The translations under genes were made by a program, and so were the position numbers. Positions 16,588 through 37,098 of a stretch of DNA of 64,000 nucleotides are shown one piece after another. The notes beneath the pieces were generated by a model. That model was not told the origin of the DNA. It searched no databases and saw only the letters and a program-made list of their open reading frames with translations. Source of the DNA: Chloroflexota bacterium (lineage in GTDB: Bacteria > Chloroflexota > Limnocylindria > Limnocylindrales > CSP1-4); NCBI GenBank assembly GCA_019637815.1, contig JAHBUZ010000006.1, positions 128,522-192,521 on the forward strand. Direction: 5' to 3'. Position 1 is the stretch's first letter; every line of letters starts with the position of its first letter.

Positions 16588-17670
16588 CTAGGAGCGGGTG
16601 GCGGGTTCCCGCACCGAGCGACGCTCCACGAGACGTGGCCGCAGCGATGCCTGGACCACGTGGCCGTCCGGCAGCTCCATCCGATGGATCAGCAGGGCGA
16701 CCGCGAGTCGACCCATGCCCAGCTTGTCCACCGCCATCGTGGTCAGCGGTGGCGACACGTGGCGCGCCAGGTCGATGTCGTCATAGCCCATCACGGAGAG
16801 TCGGTCGGGGACGCCGATGCCCGCCCGACGCGCGGCGTCGATGAGCGCCACGGCGACCGCGTCATTGGCGCAGAAGACGGCCGTCACCTCGGGATGCTGC
16901 TCGAGATATCCCATGCCGGCAGCCGCTGCCGCCTCGGGCGGCACGTGCGGCGTGTCCACGAAGTGGGGCCGGAGCCCCGCCTCCGCGATGACCGTCTCGT
17001 ACGCGCGTCGTCGCTGGGCCATGCTCGGGAACGAATCGGGCCGGGTGCCCACGAGGCAGATCGACCGGTGGCCGCGTGCGATGAGATGCTCCACCGCGGT
17101 CCGGGCGCCGGCCGCGTTGTCGCTCACGACCGCGTCCAGCGCCGCGTCCTCCGCGTAGGCGTCCACCAGCACGGCGGGTGGACCGTCCTCCAGGAGGGCC
17201 GCCGTGCCCCGACTGAGGTGCGCGCCGATGACGATGAGCCCGTCGCAGGCGCGCTCGGTGACCAGCCGCGGGACATCCAGCGGGTGGTACGCGTCGTCCA
17301 CGGGCATGTGCGCGAACAGCAGATCCGCCTCTCGTTCGCGGCACATCGCCTCCACACCCGCCATGATCGGCGCGTAGAAGCTGTTGACCTCCGGGATGTC
17401 ACCGTGGGGCGCCTTGATGACCATGCCCAGCGTGACCGGCCGCACCCGGCGACCGTTGCCACGGCCCGCGGATCGATAGCCCAGCCGGCGAGCCACGTCG
17501 GTCACCCGCTCCCGGGTCTGGCGGCTCACCCCCGGCTCGCCCCGGAGCGCGAGCGATGCGGCGGCCGAGGAGACACCCGCCTCCTGCGCCACATCGGCGA
17601 GCGTGATCCGACGCCGGCCCGCGCCGTCGCCGCTGGTTGGACTCACGAGAGCTGACGGTATCAGTGCCAT
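16588..17670 (-). CDS. LacI family transcriptional regulator
   Basis: HTH ITLADVAQEAGVSSAAASLALRG...VSRQTRERVTDVARRLGY plus a periplasmic-binding-protein-like effector domain. Confidence 0.85.
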   Translation of the reverse strand: MALIPSALVSPTSGDGAGRRRITLADVAQEAGVSSAAASLALRGEPGVSRQTRERVTDVARRLGYRSAGRGNGRRVRPVTLGMVIKAPHGDIPEVNSFYAPIMAGVEAMCREREADLLFAHMPVDDAYHPLDVPRLVTERACDGLIVIGAHLSRGTAALLEDGPPAVLVDAYAEDAALDAVVSDNAAGARTAVEHLIARGHRSICLVGTRPDSFPSMAQRRRAYETVIAEAGLRPHFVDTPHVPPEAAAAAGMGYLEQHPEVTAVFCANDAVAVALIDAARRAGIGVPDRLSVMGYDDIDLARHVSPPLTTMAVDKLGMGRLAVALLIHRMELPDGHVVQASLRPRLVERRSVREPATRS

Positions 17671-18042
17671 CTTCAGTCGTCAAAGCGGGCGTGTGCGGGC
17701 GCCCAGCCGTGTGGCGTGCCATGGCGTGCCCCGCCTGTGCGCGGAGGGCCGCGGGGGCCAAGTGTCGCGGAAAGGCCGCGGCGGAGGGGGTGCCTTCATG
17801 CGGCGGAGAGGGTGCCGTCATGCGGCGCGGGCGCCACAGGGCCACCTGCCGAGCATCCTCGGCATCTTCCTGGACGATCGACCGGACTGGTCGGCCACGT
17901 GCCGGCCCATCGTGGCCGATTCCATGCCGATCGCTCGACTGGTGGGTCGATCGCCGGCTCGCCTGAGCGTGGAGACGTGCCATGACCCTCTGCGACTCGT
18001 GGCTCGTGGTCCACCAGTCAGACCATCTGGCAGGGTTTCCCA

Positions 18043-18120
18043 GGGCGAGGGCGAGGGCGAGGGCGAGGGCGAGGGCGAGGGCGAGGGCGAGGGCGAGGGC
18101 GAGGGCGAGGGCGAGGGCGA
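18043..18120. repeat. perfect hexanucleotide microsatellite (GGGCGA/GGCGAG) x13
   Basis: 78 bp of uninterrupted 6-bp periodicity read from the sequence, about 170 bp upstream of the dnaJ start. It produces the (GE)n, (RA)n, (AL)n, (PS)n and (RP)n runs in several track ORFs. Confidence 0.9.
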
Positions 18121-18292
18121 GGGCCTGGGCGGTGCGTCGCTCGGGCTGCACGCTGTGTGGCGCGCCAGCCGCCCGCGACCGCCACGATCATGGCCGACGG
18201 GAGGGCCACCGCGATGGCTGCCGACCCTGCCGCGACGGCGCGGCCTCGCGCCACGGCCGACACCGGCGCCTTCCCTATACTCGGACGACACC

Positions 18293-19447
18293 ATGACCTC
18301 CACCCGCGACTACTACGACATCCTCGGTGTGCCTCGTGGCGCGTCCGACGAGGATCTCAAGCGCGCCTTCCGGAAGCTCGCCCAGCAGTGGCACCCGGAC
18401 GTCAGCCGGGAGCCGGGCGCGGACGAGCGCTTCAAGGAGATCAACGAGGCCTACCAGGTCCTCTCGGACCCCCAGCGGCGTCAGGCGTATGACACCTTCG
18501 GGAGGGCCGGTGTCGGGGGTGCGGACGGCTTCGGGCCGTTCGGCGGATTCGCCGGCTTCGGGGACATCTTCGATGCGTTCTTCGGGGGTGCCGCAGCGGG
18601 CTCCCAGCGACGCACCCGTGCCGCGACCGGTGCCGACCTGCGCTATGACCTCCAGCTGACGTTCGACGAGGCGATCAAGGGCACCGCCAAGGACATCACC
18701 TTCACGGCGCTCGGCACCTGCGAGACGTGCAGTGGCAGCGGCGCCGAGCCGGGCTCGACACCCACGACCTGTCCCCAGTGCGACGGCTCGGGCGAGATCC
18801 GCCAGATCCGCTCCACGATGCTCGGCCAGATGGTCAACGTGAGCGTCTGTGGTCGGTGTCGGGGCGTGGGCCAGATCGTGGAGCGTGCCTGCCCAGTGTG
18901 CCGTGGCGAAGGCCGCACGGAGCTCAAGCGCACGCTCCGGGTCACGATCCCCGCGGGCATCGATGATGGCCACCAGATCCGCCTGTCGGGCGAGGGGGAG
19001 GCGGGGCCCCGTGGCGGGACCGCGGGCAACCTGTACGTGGTGACCCACGTGGAGCCGCATCCGGCCCTGCGCCGCCAGGACACCGAGCTGTACGTGGAGC
19101 TGCCGATCTCCATCAGTCAGGCCGCGCTGGGGGCGCGCATCGCGGTGCCCACGCCGGACGGGGACGAGGTCGTCGAGGTGAAGGCGGGGACCCAGCCGGG
19201 CGCGGAGATCCGGCTCCGGGGTCGGGGCGTGCCGCATCTCCGTCGACCGGGGGTGCGTGGGGACCTCCACGTGCTCGTGGACGTCCAGGTGCCGACCCGC
19301 CTGTCGCCGCGCCAGCGGTCGCTGCTGGAGGAGCTCGCGCTGGAGTCCGGGGAGCGAGCCGATGAGCCCGTCCGGACGACCGCCGGGCGCTCGAAGGGCA
19401 AGGGCAAGCGCGGCATCGCGGATCGGCTGAAGGACGCCATCAGCTGA
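18293..19447 (+). CDS. dnaJ: molecular chaperone DnaJ
   Basis: J domain DYYDILGV...WHPDV. G/F-rich region. Four CxxCxGxG zinc-finger motifs (CETCSGSG, CPQCDGSG, CGRCRGVG, CPVCRGEG). The start is an internal ATG of track ORF 17603..19447. Confidence 0.95.
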   Translation: MTSTRDYYDILGVPRGASDEDLKRAFRKLAQQWHPDVSREPGADERFKEINEAYQVLSDPQRRQAYDTFGRAGVGGADGFGPFGGFAGFGDIFDAFFGGAAAGSQRRTRAATGADLRYDLQLTFDEAIKGTAKDITFTALGTCETCSGSGAEPGSTPTTCPQCDGSGEIRQIRSTMLGQMVNVSVCGRCRGVGQIVERACPVCRGEGRTELKRTLRVTIPAGIDDGHQIRLSGEGEAGPRGGTAGNLYVVTHVEPHPALRRQDTELYVELPISISQAALGARIAVPTPDGDEVVEVKAGTQPGAEIRLRGRGVPHLRRPGVRGDLHVLVDVQVPTRLSPRQRSLLEELALESGERADEPVRTTAGRSKGKGKRGIADRLKDAIS

Positions 19448-31599: not shown

Positions 31600-32697
31600 C
31601 TACTTCGTGTAGGCGAGCGTGAACGCGCCGTCAGTGGGCTTGCCGGCCACGGTGAAGCAGCGGACCACCACCTGCTGCGGCTTCTTGTTGCCGATACGGA
31701 TCGAGCCGACCTGGCATTCCTGCTTGCCGCTCCCGTACGGGGTCACGAGCGCCGCGCCCCCCGTGGGCATGCCCGGCAGCGTGACCCGGTACACACCCTT
31801 GGACAGCCGCTTGATGGTCGCTCGCTTCCCGTTGGTCGCCCAGGCGGTCGCCTTGGCGGGCTTGTAGCTCCTGGCGGTCGGCCGATCGGCGAGGAGGTAC
31901 GCGGACGGGCCACCGCCGAAGCCCTCGGGTCCCACGTTGCGCATGAACAGCACGTGGTGGAAGTCTCGTATCGGGGTACCGGTCGCGGTCCGGCACTGGA
32001 CCCGGACGACCAGGTCGGGGGCACCTGACCAGGACACGACCCGGCAGGTCGCGCCCAGGTGCGAGGTGACCTGGACGGTGCCCGCGCCCTTCGGGGTGCC
32101 CACGCCCGGGATGACGCCGTGGTCCCGCGTGTTGGCCAGCTCCCGCACCGTGATCGTGCCACCCGCCGATGAGTACTGGAACTCGGGGTTGGGGCCGTCA
32201 GGGTCCGCGACGTAGTAGTAGGCAAGCCGCCGGGGTCCGGCATGCTCACCTGAGCCGCCCGTGAACGTGACCACGAATCGCGAGTCCGCCTTCTTGTCCG
32301 CGAATGTGTAGCACCGGACGAGCACCCGGGCCGGGACCGCCTCCCAGTCCCGCCAGCCAAGCGTGCAGCGTCGTGGCTGACTGCCCATCGGCGTGATCTG
32401 GACGATGCTGGTCGCTGAGAGGCCCGGCAGCGCGACCCAGTAGACGCCCTTGGACGACCGATCGACCCAGTTCAGGCCACCGGTGGAGTTGCCTCGGTCG
32501 CGCGGGAAGGGCGTGTGATCCTGCTCGGGGTACCGCACGACGACCCAGCCGGACGTCGAGCCTGCGCCTCCGGCCGGTCGAGCCGGTGGATCGGTTGGCT
32601 CCGCTGCGTGCGCCTGCGTCGCACCCACGGTGGAGGCCACGAGCGCGAGGATCACGGCGACCAAGGGCAGGCGACGCCGCCGGGCAGGTGTTCTCAT
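31600..32697 (-). CDS. secreted hypothetical protein, paralog 1 of 3 (three ~100-aa two-Cys modules)
   Basis: Signal peptide MRTPARRRRLPLVAVILALVASTVGATQAHA|AEP. Three internal modules share NS.GG...R...G.Y.V.LPG...VQVT..G...C.V..W...V.V.C...D..F. C-terminus LAYTK. Confidence 0.8.
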   Translation of the reverse strand: MRTPARRRRLPLVAVILALVASTVGATQAHAAEPTDPPARPAGGAGSTSGWVVVRYPEQDHTPFPRDRGNSTGGLNWVDRSSKGVYWVALPGLSATSIVQITPMGSQPRRCTLGWRDWEAVPARVLVRCYTFADKKADSRFVVTFTGGSGEHAGPRRLAYYYVADPDGPNPEFQYSSAGGTITVRELANTRDHGVIPGVGTPKGAGTVQVTSHLGATCRVVSWSGAPDLVVRVQCRTATGTPIRDFHHVLFMRNVGPEGFGGGPSAYLLADRPTARSYKPAKATAWATNGKRATIKRLSKGVYRVTLPGMPTGGAALVTPYGSGKQECQVGSIRIGNKKPQQVVVRCFTVAGKPTDGAFTLAYTK

Positions 32698-32742
32698 CGG
32701 CGGAGCCTAGCAGCCGGCCGCAAGCGTCGAGCCGGCTGGCGA

Positions 32743-33837
32743 CTACTTCGTGTAGGCGAGCAGGAACTTCGCGTCGGCCGGCTTGCCGGTCTTGGAGAAG
32801 CAGCGGACCTCGATCCGCTGGGGTGTCGTCTTCGTGCGGATCGACCCGATCTGGCAGTCCTCGGTACCCGTGCCATACGGGGTCACGAGCGCTGCGCCAC
32901 CCTTCGGCATCCCTGGCAACGTCACCCGATACACGCCCTTGGACGCCCGCTTGATCGTCGCCTGCTTGCCGTTCGATGACCAGGCCGTCGCCTTGGCGGG
33001 GTGGTAGCTCGTCGTCCTCGTGGGCTTGCTCGCGAAGAGATAGGCCGACGGTCCGCTGCCGTACCCAGCGATGCCCAGCTTGCGCACGAACAGGAGGTTG
33101 TGTTCGGTGTCCAGCCGCGCGCCGGTGTCGTCCCGGCACAGGACGTCCACCGTCTGGGACCCGGCCCCCTTCGACCACCCGGCGATCCGGCAGGAGCCCG
33201 CATCGTAGCCGTACCAGGTCATCTGGAAGGTGCCCACCACGTCCGGATGCCCCTGGTTCGGGATCGTCGCCCGATACCGGCCTGTGCTCCGGTGCTCGAG
33301 CGTGATCTTGCCCGGCTTCGACGAGAACTGGTAGTCGAGCCACGGGGTCGAATCCGCGTCAGTCACGTCGGCCCAGTAGTAGGCGAGCCGGCCGGGGAGC
33401 CCGCCCGTCTCCGGGGGTCGCCCGGTCATGACGACGATGAACGGCGTGTCCCGCAGGTCGCCGTCATGGTCGTAGCACCGGACCTCGAGCTCCGCCCCGG
33501 GGCCCCAGCTGGTGGAGACGCACCGCCGGAGCTTGGAGCCCATGGCCGAGACCTGGACGGTGGCGGTGTACGGGATCCCCGGCAGCTGCACGTCCCAGAT
33601 GCCCCTGTCCACTCGCTGCACCGTGTTGATGCCGCCCGTGGAGTTGCCGCGGTCCCGCGACGCCGGCACGTATTCGTCCGTCCGGCTGGGCTCACGGACC
33701 ACCACCCACGCGGACCGTGAGTGGAGCACGGGGTCGGACGCGCTCGCGGCCGCCGGCAGCATGGCGGAGACCGCGAACGCGGCCAGCGACACCACGGCGA
33801 TGAGGGACCTGGATCGGGAGCGGACAGGGCCGGTCAT
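32743..33837 (-). CDS. secreted hypothetical protein, paralog 2 of 3
   Basis: Signal peptide ...LPAAASA|SDP. Same three-module layout. The C-terminal module is nearly identical to that of paralog 3. Confidence 0.8.
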   Translation of the reverse strand: MTGPVRSRSRSLIAVVSLAAFAVSAMLPAAASASDPVLHSRSAWVVVREPSRTDEYVPASRDRGNSTGGINTVQRVDRGIWDVQLPGIPYTATVQVSAMGSKLRRCVSTSWGPGAELEVRCYDHDGDLRDTPFIVVMTGRPPETGGLPGRLAYYWADVTDADSTPWLDYQFSSKPGKITLEHRSTGRYRATIPNQGHPDVVGTFQMTWYGYDAGSCRIAGWSKGAGSQTVDVLCRDDTGARLDTEHNLLFVRKLGIAGYGSGPSAYLFASKPTRTTSYHPAKATAWSSNGKQATIKRASKGVYRVTLPGMPKGGAALVTPYGTGTEDCQIGSIRTKTTPQRIEVRCFSKTGKPADAKFLLAYTK

Positions 33838-33923
33838 CCGGAGAGCCTACCGACCCGATGCAAGCGTGAGCGGGCGGGACGGCCGCGCCGGCTCGAGACG
33901 CGAGCCGGATCCCAGCGCCCGCC

Positions 33924-35015
33924 CTACTTCGTATACGCGAGCAGGAACTTCGCGTTCGCCGGCTTGCCGGTCTTGGAGAAGCAGCGCACGACCACCTGCT
34001 GGGGCGTCTTGTCCGTCCGGATCGACCCGATCTGGCAGTCCTCCGTACCGGTGCCATACGGGGTCACGAGCGCTGCGCCACCCTTCGGCATCCCGGGGAG
34101 CGTCACCCGATACACGCCCTTGGACGACCGCTTGATCGTCGCCTGCTTGCCGTTCGACGCCCAGGCCGTCGCCTTGGCGGGCTTGTAGCTCGTGGTCCTC
34201 GTGGGCTTGCTCGCGAAGAGATAGGCGGACGGTCCACCGCCGTACCCCTCGATGCCCAGGTTGCGCAGGAACAGCAGGTCGTGCTGGGTGTCGGCGAGCG
34301 CACCGGCCGGCCTGCGGCAGTGGATGTCCACGGTCTGGGCACCGGACCCTTTCGACCACCCCGCGATGCGGCAGTAGCCAGCCCTGTCGTACGGGCTCAC
34401 CTGGAACGTGCCCACCACCGTCGCGTGCCCCTGCTTCGGGATCGTGGCCCGGTACTTGCCGGTCCCCCGGTGGTCGAGCGTGATCTCGCCGGGCTTCGAC
34501 GAGTACTGGTAGGTGTCGAGTGGGGTCGAGTCCGCAGACTCGACGTCGGCCCAGTAGTAGGCGAGTCGACCGGGGAGGCTGCCGCTGGACGCGGGAGCCT
34601 CCGTCAAGGTGACCACGAACGGCGCGTCCTTCAACTGGCCCGCATAGTCGAAGCACTGCACGTACGTTTCATCGATTCCCCAGCTCGAGGGCACGCACCG
34701 ACGCGGCTTGGAGCCCATGGCCGACGCCTGGACCTGATCAAGATCGCCCACGCCCGGCATCATGATGCGCCACGTGCCCTTCCAGGTGCGCTCGACCTTG
34801 TTCCTGCCGCCCGTGGAGTTGCCACGGTCACGCGCGGCCGGTGCGTACTCCCCCGTTCGACCCGGGTCCCGGACCACGACCCACGCCGACACCGAGTGCG
34901 TGGGTGCCTGCCCGCCAGCCATCGCGGACGCCGGGAGGATGGCCGTTGCTGCGAGCACGGCCAGTGACACCACGGCGGCAAGGGACCTGGGTCGGGAGCG
35001 GGCAGGTCTGGTCAT
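33924..35015 (-). CDS. secreted hypothetical protein, paralog 3 of 3
   Basis: Signal peptide ...ILPASAMA|GGQ. Same three-module layout. C-terminus KFLLAYTK. Confidence 0.8.
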   Translation of the reverse strand: MTRPARSRPRSLAAVVSLAVLAATAILPASAMAGGQAPTHSVSAWVVVRDPGRTGEYAPAARDRGNSTGGRNKVERTWKGTWRIMMPGVGDLDQVQASAMGSKPRRCVPSSWGIDETYVQCFDYAGQLKDAPFVVTLTEAPASSGSLPGRLAYYWADVESADSTPLDTYQYSSKPGEITLDHRGTGKYRATIPKQGHATVVGTFQVSPYDRAGYCRIAGWSKGSGAQTVDIHCRRPAGALADTQHDLLFLRNLGIEGYGGGPSAYLFASKPTRTTSYKPAKATAWASNGKQATIKRSSKGVYRVTLPGMPKGGAALVTPYGTGTEDCQIGSIRTDKTPQQVVVRCFSKTGKPANAKFLLAYTK

Positions 35016-35143
35016 CGGTCGAGCCTAGCGACCCGATGCAAGCGGTCGCAGGCCGGACAGGTCGCAGGCCGGACGCAAGCCCGGGCGCCGGACGACGGAC
35101 GAGCGATACGTGCCCGCGGGCGGGCCAGCCGCCGAGGCGGAGG

Positions 35144-35575
35144 TCAGTCGAGCGGGGACTCGTGGAGGATGTGGCCTCGGCGCGGCTCCGGCAGGTCGAC
35201 CAGCCGAAGCCCGGGCACCCGCTCGAACTCAGCCCGGTTCAGGGTCGCGACGGCGTACCCATGCGCAAGCGCGGTCGATGCGATCCACAGGTCGTGGGGC
35301 CCGATGAGGCTCCCGCGCGACTCGAGGTGTGACCAGATCCTGGCGTGTACCCGCGCGACCGCGGTGGTGATGGGGACCGGCTTCATCCCGGCGAGGATCC
35401 CCTCGACGATGGCCTCGCGTCTCGCCCGGTGCTCGGTGGTCGCTCGATGGACGCCGTGGAGCAGCTCACTGACGGTGATCACGCTGATCGCGACACCCGG
35501 ACGCTCGATGAGCCCGGTGATCCGGCCGCGTTGCTCTCGACCGATGAGCAGGCTGGTGTCGATCAGGACTCCCAC
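35144..35575 (-). CDS. vapC: PIN-domain toxin VapC
   Basis: MGVLIDTSLLI..., VITVSELLHG and ...ATLNRAEFERV. Overlaps the upstream antitoxin gene by 13 nt. Confidence 0.8.
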   Translation of the reverse strand: MGVLIDTSLLIGREQRGRITGLIERPGVAISVITVSELLHGVHRATTEHRARREAIVEGILAGMKPVPITTAVARVHARIWSHLESRGSLIGPHDLWIASTALAHGYAVATLNRAEFERVPGLRLVDLPEPRRGHILHESPLD

Positions 35576-35820
35576 GGATCATCCAGGGGCAGGAGCTCGC
35601 CCCGCAAGGCATCGATGTCGGCGGCGAAGTCCTCATCGGCCTCTGGCAGCGACTCGAGGAGCTCGCGGAACGCCTCCGCGCTGGTGAGGTACGGATCAGG
35701 TCGCGTGATGACCGCGACGGCCGTGCCGTGCCGGACGACCTCGATCCGCTCACCCCTGCTGACACGGTCGAGGACGGCGGAGAGGTTGCGCGCGAGCTCG
35801 GTCGCGGTCAGTCGAGCCAT
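35563..35820 (-). CDS. Phd/YefM-type antitoxin (VapB)
   Basis: The last 85 codons of track ORF 35563..37911: MARLTATELARNLSAVLDRVSRGERIEVVRHGTAVAVI. The rest of that ORF is antisense to the Kelch and pth genes. Confidence 0.75.
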   Translation of the reverse strand: MARLTATELARNLSAVLDRVSRGERIEVVRHGTAVAVITRPDPYLTSAEAFRELLESLPEADEDFAADIDALRGELLPLDDPWES

Positions 35821-35979
35821 GTCGGCCACGATATCAGATGTATCTGATCCATCTGATCCCAGGGCCGTGGCCGCCGCTGGGTGCGTCGAGGTTCCCGGGC
35901 GCACTACCATCCTCGTGGTCGATGGCTGTGGCGCGCGTGGTCGGCGCCGCACCCGGCCACGAGGCTCGAGGAGGCGATC

Positions 35980-37098
35980 GTGAGGACATCCAGGCAGCGG
36001 GTGGCGTCGGCACTGGTGATGGTCCTGGCCGGGACGGCGCTGTCCATCGCGCCGGTGGCTGCCGAGGGCCGCATCTCGGCGACGGGGTCGATGTCGGTCG
36101 GTCGCTACGGTCACACCGCCACCCTCCTGCCGGACGGCCGGGTGCTGGTCATCGGCGGGTTCTCGGTCGATGAGCAGTCGGCCTCCGTCCACGATACCGC
36201 CGAGATCTGGGATCCGGTGACCGGCGTCTTCGCTGCGACGGGTCCGCTGGCGACCGGTCGCTACCGTCATACCGCCACCCTCCTGCCCGACGGCAGCGTG
36301 CTCGTGGTCGGGGGCGGCGATGGCGCTGGCCGGCCCGTCGCCGCCGAGCGTTGGGACCCGGTGACGGGTGCCTTCACGACGACCGGCTCGCTGCTCGTCG
36401 GCCGCGCCGACCATCGAGCGATCCTCCTGCCGGACGGCCGGGTGCTGGTCATCGGCGGAGGTGATGGCGAGGGCCCCATCGCCTCCGCCGAGCTCTGGGA
36501 TCCCGCGTCCGCTGCGTTCGAGCCGACAGGCTCGATGGGCCACGCCCGCTACGACTTCACCGCGACCCTCCTGGCCGATGGCAGCGTGCTGGTCGTCGGG
36601 GGCCGCGACAGCTCGGACACCCTGGTGCCCACCGCCACTGCTGAGCGCTGGGACGCCACCAGCGGCACCTTTGCCGAGACGGGTCCGATCACGACCGCCC
36701 GCTTCGGTCACACCGCGACCCTCCTGCCTGACGGCAGCGTGCTGGTCGTCGGGGGCCGCTACGACGAGGTCTTCGCGACCGCCGAACGCTGGGACCCCAC
36801 CACCGGGATCTTCGCCGAGGCGGGCTCCATGGCCGATGCTCGCTTCTATCACGCGGCGACCTCCCTCCTCGACGGACGCGTGCTGGTGGTCGGCGGGTGG
36901 AGCGCCGGCGCCTCGGCCGCCTCGGCCGAGCTGTGGGACCCGGTCACTGGCACCTTCGCCGCGGCCGGGTCGATGGCGGGCGGCCGCAACGGTCTCACCG
37001 CGACCCTCCTGCCGGATGGTCGTGTGCTCCTGGTCGGGGGCCGCCAGTCCAACCCCACGCTCGCCGTGGCGGAGATCTGGGAGCCCGCAGCCGACTGA
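35980..37098 (+). CDS. secreted Kelch-repeat protein (seven-bladed beta-propeller)
   Basis: GTG at 35980 preceded by GAGGAGG. Signal peptide VASALVMVLAGTALSIAPVAAEG. Seven repeats of G(S/P)(M/L)...R..HTATLLPDG.VLV.GG...AE.WDP..G.F. Confidence 0.8.
   Translation: MRTSRQRVASALVMVLAGTALSIAPVAAEGRISATGSMSVGRYGHTATLLPDGRVLVIGGFSVDEQSASVHDTAEIWDPVTGVFAATGPLATGRYRHTATLLPDGSVLVVGGGDGAGRPVAAERWDPVTGAFTTTGSLLVGRADHRAILLPDGRVLVIGGGDGEGPIASAELWDPASAAFEPTGSMGHARYDFTATLLADGSVLVVGGRDSSDTLVPTATAERWDATSGTFAETGPITTARFGHTATLLPDGSVLVVGGRYDEVFATAERWDPTTGIFAEAGSMADARFYHAATSLLDGRVLVVGGWSAGASAASAELWDPVTGTFAAAGSMAGGRNGLTATLLPDGRVLLVGGRQSNPTLAVAEIWEPAAD

Follow-up and report, generated by a model that had tools for sequence, protein, structure and literature searches.

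Three tandem genes (here A, B and C) in a 64,000-nucleotide stretch of a Chloroflexota bacterium genome (contig JAHBUZ010000006.1, positions 128,522 to 192,521; hereafter the window) encode members of an extracellular domain family that is real, widespread and as yet uncurated. With moderate confidence, we read each protein as a single-chain, pseudo-trimeric and lectin-like extracellular binding unit, diversified by tandem duplication. The sequence-only reading that preceded this analysis had offered binding, adhesion or surface recognition as a guess. Fusions in which the unit is an accessory part and its phage tailspike and fibre relatives speak for that guess; no ligand was identified.

All three genes lie on the reverse strand. 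Gene A (31600-32697) is an open reading frame (ORF) of 365 aa, gene B (32743-33837) one of 364 aa, and gene C (33924-35015) one of 363 aa; they are co-oriented, with intergenic gaps of 45 and 86 bp, exactly where the sequence-only reading had placed three paralogues of 363 to 365 aa. Proteins B and C are 70% identical to each other, and A is 48% identical to both (E value of 1e-100 or better). The NCBI records returned covered B and C only: B is identical to KF809_06645, and C corresponds to KF809_06650. A database copy of protein A (P0003, on a 1150-bp Logan contig) deviates from the window translation near position 38 by one or more residues (PQA versus PPA).

Each mature protein had been split by eye into three homologous modules of ~100 aa, nine in all. 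This split was verified by profile-profile comparison, using three-sequence profiles cut at residues 41 to 139, 150 to 254 and 263 to 364 of protein B. All pairs aligned significantly, with E values of 2e-14 for M1 versus M3, 7e-7 for M2 versus M3 and 1.8e-5 for M1 versus M2, M2 having diverged furthest. The threefold repeat within each protein is statistically real. M1, M2 and M3 lie at 32257-32556, 31939-32229 and 31603-31908 in gene A; at 33421-33717, 33076-33390 and 32746-33051 in gene B; and at 34599-34892, 34257-34568 and 33927-34232 in gene C (matches to a module hidden Markov model [HMM] with E values of 2e-24, 1e-26 and 1e-34, respectively), all on the reverse strand; the modules of A matched the HMM as well. 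As had been noted from the sequence, there are exactly two Cys per module and six per protein (106/121, 216/234 and 328/346 in B; 107/121, 215/233 and 327/345 in C), and all six were invariant in an alignment of 82 diverse homologues. The invariant columns hold structural residues only (Cys, Gly and aromatics), with no conserved constellation of acidic, His or Ser residues.

The module does not occur freely in any number. The module HMM, built from the nine modules of the window and refined once, was run on 163 proteins, and 131 of these had three modules, 22 had six and one had nine. Counts of two or five came mostly from short, truncated-looking proteins, and every family gene in the 12 bacterial loci that were fetched (L001 to L012) encoded exactly three. 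Position-specific subtype HMMs were trained on half of the three-module proteins and tested on the other half. The held-out modules were classified correctly in 53 of 58 cases for M1, 57 of 58 for M2 and 52 of 58 for M3. These results indicate an old triplication with a fixed order of M1, M2 and M3. Among the 22 proteins with six modules, module i best matched module i+3 in 13 to 18 cases (mean score of 187 to 218 versus 97 to 150), and the median linker lengths repeat as 7, 10, 7, 6 and 10. The longer proteins therefore grew by duplication of whole triplets. Recovery of an M1-M2-M3-M1-M2-M3 order in these proteins by the subtype HMMs failed; it was the direct pairwise scores that revealed the i/i+3 relation. 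Since modules come only in threes, in fixed order and with i matching i+3, we conclude that the triplet is the structural and evolutionary unit. Thus, the proteins are modular as had been proposed, with three modules each, but the unit is the triplet and not the single module.

To the sequence-only reading, the Cys pattern had suggested a disulfide-stapled beta-sandwich, and structure prediction bore this fold out. An AlphaFold2 model of protein B, computed from an 18-sequence alignment, was all-beta with eight strands per module (mean predicted local distance difference test score [pLDDT], 88.8; predicted template modelling [TM] score [pTM], 0.86), and M3 modelled alone also had eight strands (pLDDT, 96.1). 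The two Cys of M3 sit in the successive strands 6 and 7, where a disulfide could form across the strands, and on this model the paired Cys of each module would be bonded. Because a pTM of 0.86 was reached for a three-domain chain with linkers of 8 to 10 residues, the model indicates a confidently predicted compact arrangement rather than beads on a string. We infer that M1, M2 and M3 pack with pseudo-threefold symmetry, from the rule of 3, 6 or 9 modules, the triplet duplication, the fixed subtype order and the pTM of 0.86.

Searches with Foldseek linked the module to the distal parts of phage fibres. The whole chain matched nothing significant in the PDB, where superposition was confused by the three domains and a single-module query was needed. 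With that query, the PhiAB6 tailspike was the best match (5JSD/5JS4; probability, 1.00; TM score, 0.60; 23% identity), alongside the receptor-binding domain of the Pam1 cyanophage tailspike (7EEA; probability, 0.92), the R2 pyocin fibre (6CT8; probability, 0.69; TM score, 0.39) and a Klebsiella phage depolymerase. Phage distal domains are antiparallel beta-sandwiches of seven to eight strands and ~100 to 110 aa, and the eight-stranded single-module model agrees with this. The C-terminal domain of PhiAB6 is an independent beta-sandwich of which three copies pack as a trimeric dome (PMC5314372). The pyocin foot is likewise a trimer of eight-stranded jellyrolls with a discoidin-like lectin fold; it resembles the C-terminal domains of podophage tailspikes and has been proposed to bind lipopolysaccharide sugars via variable distal loops (PMC6363177). 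Against viral structure models, the whole chain matched the tail fibre of cyanophage Syn5 (E value of 9.8e-9) and two fibres of Synechococcus phage ACG-2014f (2e-6 and 3e-5), all with a probability of 1.0.

The relation to the Syn5 fibre is also visible in sequence. The module HMM scored 33.1 bits on Syn5 gp46 (UniProt A4ZRC7; E value of 2.9e-12), summed over eight weak matches spaced by ~100 to 120 aa, i.e., at least eight related modules in tandem. The controls were far lower: at most 11.4 bits in 1000 global or local shuffles, -10 for the reversed sequence and at most 3.3 for other Syn5 proteins. The common core (vtR.gtG.Y.V.f..pMP in the phage) most resembles Y.VTLPGMP, the motif of M3. 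The Cys pair is not conserved in gp46, which has 4 Cys in 1351 aa. A triplet periodicity was tested for and was absent, which argues that the triplet was not inherited from that phage architecture. At its N terminus gp46 has a T7-type adaptor and at its C terminus a MYRF-like intramolecular-chaperone domain, both hallmarks of homotrimeric fibres. Given these domains and gp46 modules that have neither the Cys pair nor a period of three, the likely history is a module that trimerises between chains in phages and that, in the cellular family, was triplicated within one chain and gained a disulfide staple.

What the triplet does is suggested by the company it keeps. It is fused to an M4 thermolysin-type peptidase (P0127), a beta-lactamase/AmpH-like enzyme (P0150), Spherulin4 (P0161), an alpha/beta-hydrolase (P0047) and an ALO oxidase domain. 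It occurs with Ig-like and similar domains (Big_2, He_PIG, TIG, BACON, FlgD_ig and Bact_surface_Ig-like) and with sorting signals of the type IX secretion system, PEP-CTERM and Solibacter C-terminal kinds. In P0127, P0150, P0161 and P0047, the unit is appended to extracellular catalytic domains, as carbohydrate-binding modules (CBMs) and lectins are. Among 179 sampled proteins, 116 are stand-alone secreted proteins without an anchor. All of the fusion contexts are extracellular or at the surface, and the fusion pattern is typical of accessory substrate-binding units. Because of these fusion partners and the receptor-binding relatives in phages, a lectin-like extracellular binding role appears to be the best-supported function.

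The three modules have evolved at different rates. Among the three paralogues, the ratio of nonsynonymous to synonymous substitution rates (dN/dS) was 0.23 to 0.29 for M3, 0.48 to 0.78 for M1 and 0.52 to 1.08 for M2, and column entropy across the family was also lowest in M3 (1.94 versus 2.29 and 2.47). On our reading, M3 forms the conserved core and specificity would reside in the more variable M1 and M2; relaxed constraint fits the pattern too. Between B and C, dS was 0.73 for M1, 0.46 for M2 and 0.21 for M3 (32746-33051 versus 33927-34232). The M3 value is far below that of M1, which suggests that the 3′ ends of B and C have undergone gene conversion or were recently homogenised. Tandem amplification recurs, since a second Chloroflexota metagenome-assembled genome (MAG) holds two tandem pairs within 11 kb.

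The extracellular location is predicted from the N termini of A, B and C, which consist of Arg-rich residues, a hydrophobic stretch of ~15 to 20 aa and an AxA site (AHA|AEP, ASA|SDP and AMA|GGQ). The putative signal peptides span residues 1 to 31 in A (32605-32697, reverse strand; a Pro-rich linker follows), 1 to 33 in B (33739-33837, reverse strand) and 1 to 33 in C (34917-35015, reverse strand), and would be cleaved at these sites. Residues 1 to 34 of B are unstructured in the AlphaFold model. A crude signal-peptide test was passed by 110 of 122 family members. Motif inspection of A, B and C found no lipobox, LPXTG, Tat motif or C-terminal anchor, and lipoprotein, sortase-substrate and Tat-substrate readings were rejected. 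The sequence-only description of signal-peptide-like N termini without an anchor, lipobox or sortase motif was thus borne out.

The family has escaped curation. Scans of A, B and C against Pfam and NCBIfam returned nothing at an E value of ≤10 apart from a sub-threshold match to bacHORMA_2 (12.4 bits against a cutoff of 27.3). PHROGs gave no significant match and one marginal tail-fibre match (E value of 0.0097), PADLOC gave none, and sequence searches of the PDB found nothing with a single-protein, module-profile or full-profile query. Weak HORMA and beta-trefoil lectin matches (E values of 0.15 to 0.2) were set aside as noise. The precomputed Pfam field is empty for stand-alone homologues, and only the multidomain P0178 carries Pfam entries. 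No functional name for the module was found in the sources searched. That the sequence-only reading could assign the module to no domain family is borne out as far as Pfam and NCBIfam go, with one correction: phage fibres contain a module to which it is distantly related. An exhaustive phmmer search with protein A against 1.84 billion cluster representatives (50% identity clusters) yielded 1380 clusters at an E value of ≤1e-3, 810 at ≤1e-10 and 106 at ≤1e-30. A word-indexed protein search had badly undercounted the family (18 and then 24 matches), and a scan of a genome collection, which relied on a single peptide pattern and found only 2 loci, is a poor guide to how the family is distributed across phyla. 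The members that carry a name are from Chloroflexota MAGs (among them "Ca. Limnocylindrales"), Bryobacteraceae, Bradymonadia, Kangiellaceae and the cyanobacterium Alkalinema, i.e., from Chloroflexota, Acidobacteriota, Myxococcota, Gammaproteobacteria and Cyanobacteria. A family of ~1380 clusters (50% identity) spread over many phyla is no peculiarity of this genome.

Together, these data can be drawn into a working model. A, B and C would be Sec-exported soluble proteins, each a single-chain pseudo-trimer in which three eight-stranded beta-sandwich modules of ~100 aa pack into a compact whole, and a single disulfide staples the neighbouring strands 6 and 7 of each module. Such a unit would imitate in one chain the trimeric knob or dome that phage distal domains build from three chains. 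It would bind in a lectin-like manner outside the cell, the ligand being most likely a glycan or another polymer of the cell surface or matrix; M3 would be the conserved core, and the fast-evolving M1 and M2 would determine specificity. Tandem duplication would have given three variants, which probably differ in specificity.

Several observations weigh against this model. Neither a ligand nor a binding site nor a conserved sugar-binding motif was identified, and accessory beta-sandwich domains on enzymes can be spacers rather than binders. The Foldseek E values against solved structures are weak (best, 0.06), though the probabilities and TM scores are good, and whole-chain matches to single-chain C1q/adiponectin trimers are poor (TM scores of 0.32 to 0.34; probability of ≤0.15). 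The dN/dS near 1 in M2 could reflect relaxed constraint and not diversifying selection. The Syn5 array lacks a period-3 pattern, and the subtype HMMs resolve no M1-M2-M3 order in the more divergent six-module proteins.

An inert structural unit with no specific ligand, serving as a very stable, disulfide-stapled scaffold or spacer or as part of a surface matrix or coat, is the most credible alternative, yet we regard it as unlikely. Spacer-type domains (Ig-like, TIG, He_PIG and BACON) do accompany the triplet in long proteins, the invariant positions are only structural, and no conserved polar pocket was identified. However, the stand-alone, anchorless proteins that make up most of the family have nothing to space, the nearest relatives are the receptor-binding parts of phage fibres, and fast M1 and M2 beside a conserved M3 fit changing specificity better than a scaffold. 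The same invariant columns bear on a further proposal, that the proteins are enzymes such as a new glycoside hydrolase or lyase with an active site between modules. This is very improbable: tailspikes whose C-terminal domain is related do act as depolymerases, and grooves between subunits can hold catalytic sites, but no acidic, His or Ser constellation is conserved here, and the triplet is appended to proteins that already hold a catalytic domain. Moreover, the carbohydrate-binding grooves described for PhiAB6-type tailspikes lie where subunits meet in the main beta-helix body and not in the sandwich at the C terminus (PMC5314372).

The phage relatives invite two other explanations. The array could be what is left of a fibre locus from a prophage or tailocin, without cellular function, in keeping with the similarity to phage fibre modules and with one relative on an IMG/VR contig beside an integrase. 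We consider this the least probable of all the readings. A, B and C are intact, carry signal peptides and no virion adaptor, and have a host-like GC content at third codon positions (GC3), and M3 is under purifying selection (dN/dS of 0.23 to 0.29). Their neighbours are YbeY, DinB_2, VapBC, Kelch, Pth and Mfd genes; a domain scan of the immediate neighbours YbeY, DinB_2, Pth and Mfd found no phage structural gene among them, no PHROG matched below an E value of 0.0097, and a tblastn search of protein A against 50,697 phage genomes was empty. The Syn5 fibre has neither the invariant Cys pairs nor the rule of three, both of which belong to the cellular family. Alternatively, a receptor-binding domain of phage origin could serve as a weapon, i.e., a bacteriocin-like or targeting protein against competitors, or as a shield, i.e., a decoy that masks the producer's phage receptor. 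The relation in fold and sequence to phage fibre and tailspike modules, and to the pyocin fibre, would fit this proposal, as would tandem diversification in an arms race and the accessory islands that form most of the contexts examined. It is nevertheless quite unlikely, since there is neither a toxic or catalytic domain nor an immunity-like partner gene, PADLOC found no match, two contexts are plain metabolic, the fusions are to hydrolases and surface-sorting signals and not to toxin domains, and toxin-antitoxin (TA) genes may simply be frequent in these genomes. A more specific version, which we hold to be distinctly improbable, is that a phage receptor-binding module was domesticated as a single-chain pseudo-trimer, secreted in tandemly diversified versions, for anti-phage or inter-bacterial recognition, acting from TA or defence islands as receptor decoys or competitor-targeting proteins. 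The lectin-like binding unit remains the reading that we prefer.

The genomic contexts themselves are varied. Two loci have plain metabolic neighbourhoods, and others hold TIR_2, AbiEii, HEPN_Swt1/DUF499, Fic, Prim-Pol/D5_N, a ParB-methylase or an integrase; no neighbour was conserved across all contexts examined. The contexts are suggestive of an accessory-island character. A TA pair lies directly upstream and co-oriented in 3 of ~10 contexts (35144-35820 in the window, 7080-7735 in L005 and 5879-6453 in L006), and the pairs are of the Phd/YefM+PIN, 77-aa+PIN and 78-aa+PemK types. In three permafrost Chloroflexi contigs, a co-oriented gene for a 330-aa collagen-repeat protein precedes the family gene (6730-7722 in L010/L011 and 1297-2289 in L012). 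This protein has a hydrophobic segment at its N terminus and a globular domain of ~85 aa at its C terminus; upstream of P0009, it was considered as a single-module homotrimeric counterpart and rejected, as the module HMM did not match it. In a Bradymonadia MAG (L002, 7083-9020), the triplet follows an N-terminal extension of ~300 aa with a sub-threshold match to eCIS_core (PF13699; E value of 0.0076).

In the window, the array is flanked by DinB_2 and YbeY on one side and by Phd/YefM-PIN, Kelch, Pth and Mfd on the other. Domain matches confirmed the VapBC pair and the Kelch protein that the sequence-only reading had named: a PIN (VapC) toxin upstream of and co-oriented with gene C (35144-35575, reverse strand; Pfam PIN, E value of 6e-16), a Phd/YefM antitoxin that forms a type II pair with it (35563-35820, reverse strand; PhdYeFM_antitox, E value of 7.6e-8) and, divergent from VapBC, a Kelch beta-propeller protein with at least six Kelch repeats and an N-terminal hydrophobic segment (35881-37098, forward strand). 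No Kelch gene recurred beside family members in the other loci examined. The GC3 of A, B and C (0.88 to 0.93) is the same as in the remainder of the window and the GC content matches too; recent horizontal transfer, as judged by composition, was rejected, the GC and GC3 of the three genes being those of the genome. An Rfam scan of the window gave no matches, and tRNA scans gave none. Elsewhere in the window, a perfect hexanucleotide repeat (13.8 copies of AGGGCG, 18042-18124) lies within a high-GC3 ORF (17603-19447, forward strand), where it would encode a dipeptide repeat.

Each gene of the array is preceded by a copy of a conserved element of ~29 nt (direct-repeat family D5, reverse strand). 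The copy before gene C (35016-35044) reads CGCTTGCATCGGGTCGCTAGGCTCGACCG-ATG, and the equivalent copies lie at 33838-33866 before gene B and at 32698-32726 before gene A. The pattern is CGCTTGC...G[CG]TAGGCTC-N5-ATG, in which the TAGGCT hexamer (TANNNT) ends 6 nt before the ATG, and the elements of A, B and C all lack a Shine-Dalgarno sequence. The layout is the one expected for a leaderless mRNA, with TAGGCT as its possible -10 box, in which case each paralogue may carry its own promoter. The same TANNNT-N6/7-ATG layout is found at two homologues in L003 (starts at 1178 and 2348), whereas most other homologues have GGAG-type ribosome-binding sites instead. Between the VapC stop codon and the gene C leader, directly upstream of the leader, Tandem Repeats Finder found two copies of a perfect 16-bp direct repeat, GGTCGCAGGCCGGACA (35044-35074; 100% match), a candidate site at which a regulator of the array's first gene would bind. 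A scan of the region for consensus sigma-70 promoters gave 0 promoter-like sites, and a terminator scan gave 2 terminator-like sites (shuffle mean, 0.7), neither after a gene end.

The absence of the family from Pfam and NCBIfam means that thousands of secreted proteins are now labelled hypothetical. If binding is confirmed, the triplet would provide glycobiology with a new lectin or CBM class, help to annotate accessory domains of many environmental hydrolases and offer a stable disulfide-stapled scaffold for engineering. The family links the secretomes of uncultured bacteria with the phage receptor-binding toolkit. The strict rule of three and the homotrimeric phage relatives suggest that a homotrimeric knob was turned into a single-chain pseudo-trimer, a conversion that frees three faces to diverge.

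Comparison with known systems places the triplet near several of them. The C-terminal domain of PhiAB6 shares the antiparallel beta-sandwich of ~100 to 110 aa, and its trimeric dome parallels the strict count of 3, 6 or 9 modules found here. It is, however, present in one copy per chain of a homotrimeric virion protein, after a beta-helix depolymerase, whereas the proteins described here have three diverged copies per secreted chain, a Cys pair in each, no beta-helix and no virion adaptor; the Foldseek E value is only 0.06, and there is no detectable sequence similarity to the PDB entry. Syn5 gp46 and the ACG-2014f fibres share tandem modules of ~105 to 119 aa and the common core motif with the array. 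Syn5 gp46 differs in having no Cys pair and at least eight modules in a row between adaptor and chaperone domain, while the bacterial proteins have a signal peptide. The R-type pyocin foot (6CT8) is similar in its eight-stranded sandwich, trimeric in the pyocin, and in its conserved core with variable surfaces; it differs in being part of a contractile tailocin, with a weaker match (TM score, 0.39) and no sequence similarity. The highest whole-chain TM scores among PDB entries belonged to engineered single-chain C1q/adiponectin proteins, with three sandwiches around a threefold axis. With a root mean square deviation of ~12 Å and TM scores of 0.32 to 0.34, this is an analogy of architecture at most; membership in the C1q/TNF superfamily was rejected on these poor scores and probabilities and on its absence from the top 50 single-module matches listed. 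Like the triplet, CBMs and tandem-repeat lectins are accessory parts of secreted enzymes, and many lectins are also secreted as stand-alone proteins; the triplet differs from them in having no Pfam CBM or lectin match, in being an obligate triplet and not a single module, and in that its binding is predicted. Phage-type jellyroll binding domains and CBM- or lectin-like accessory modules are thus the kinds of system already known, and the new feature is an obligate and, as modelled, disulfide-stapled single-chain triplet of a phage-fibre-like beta-sandwich.

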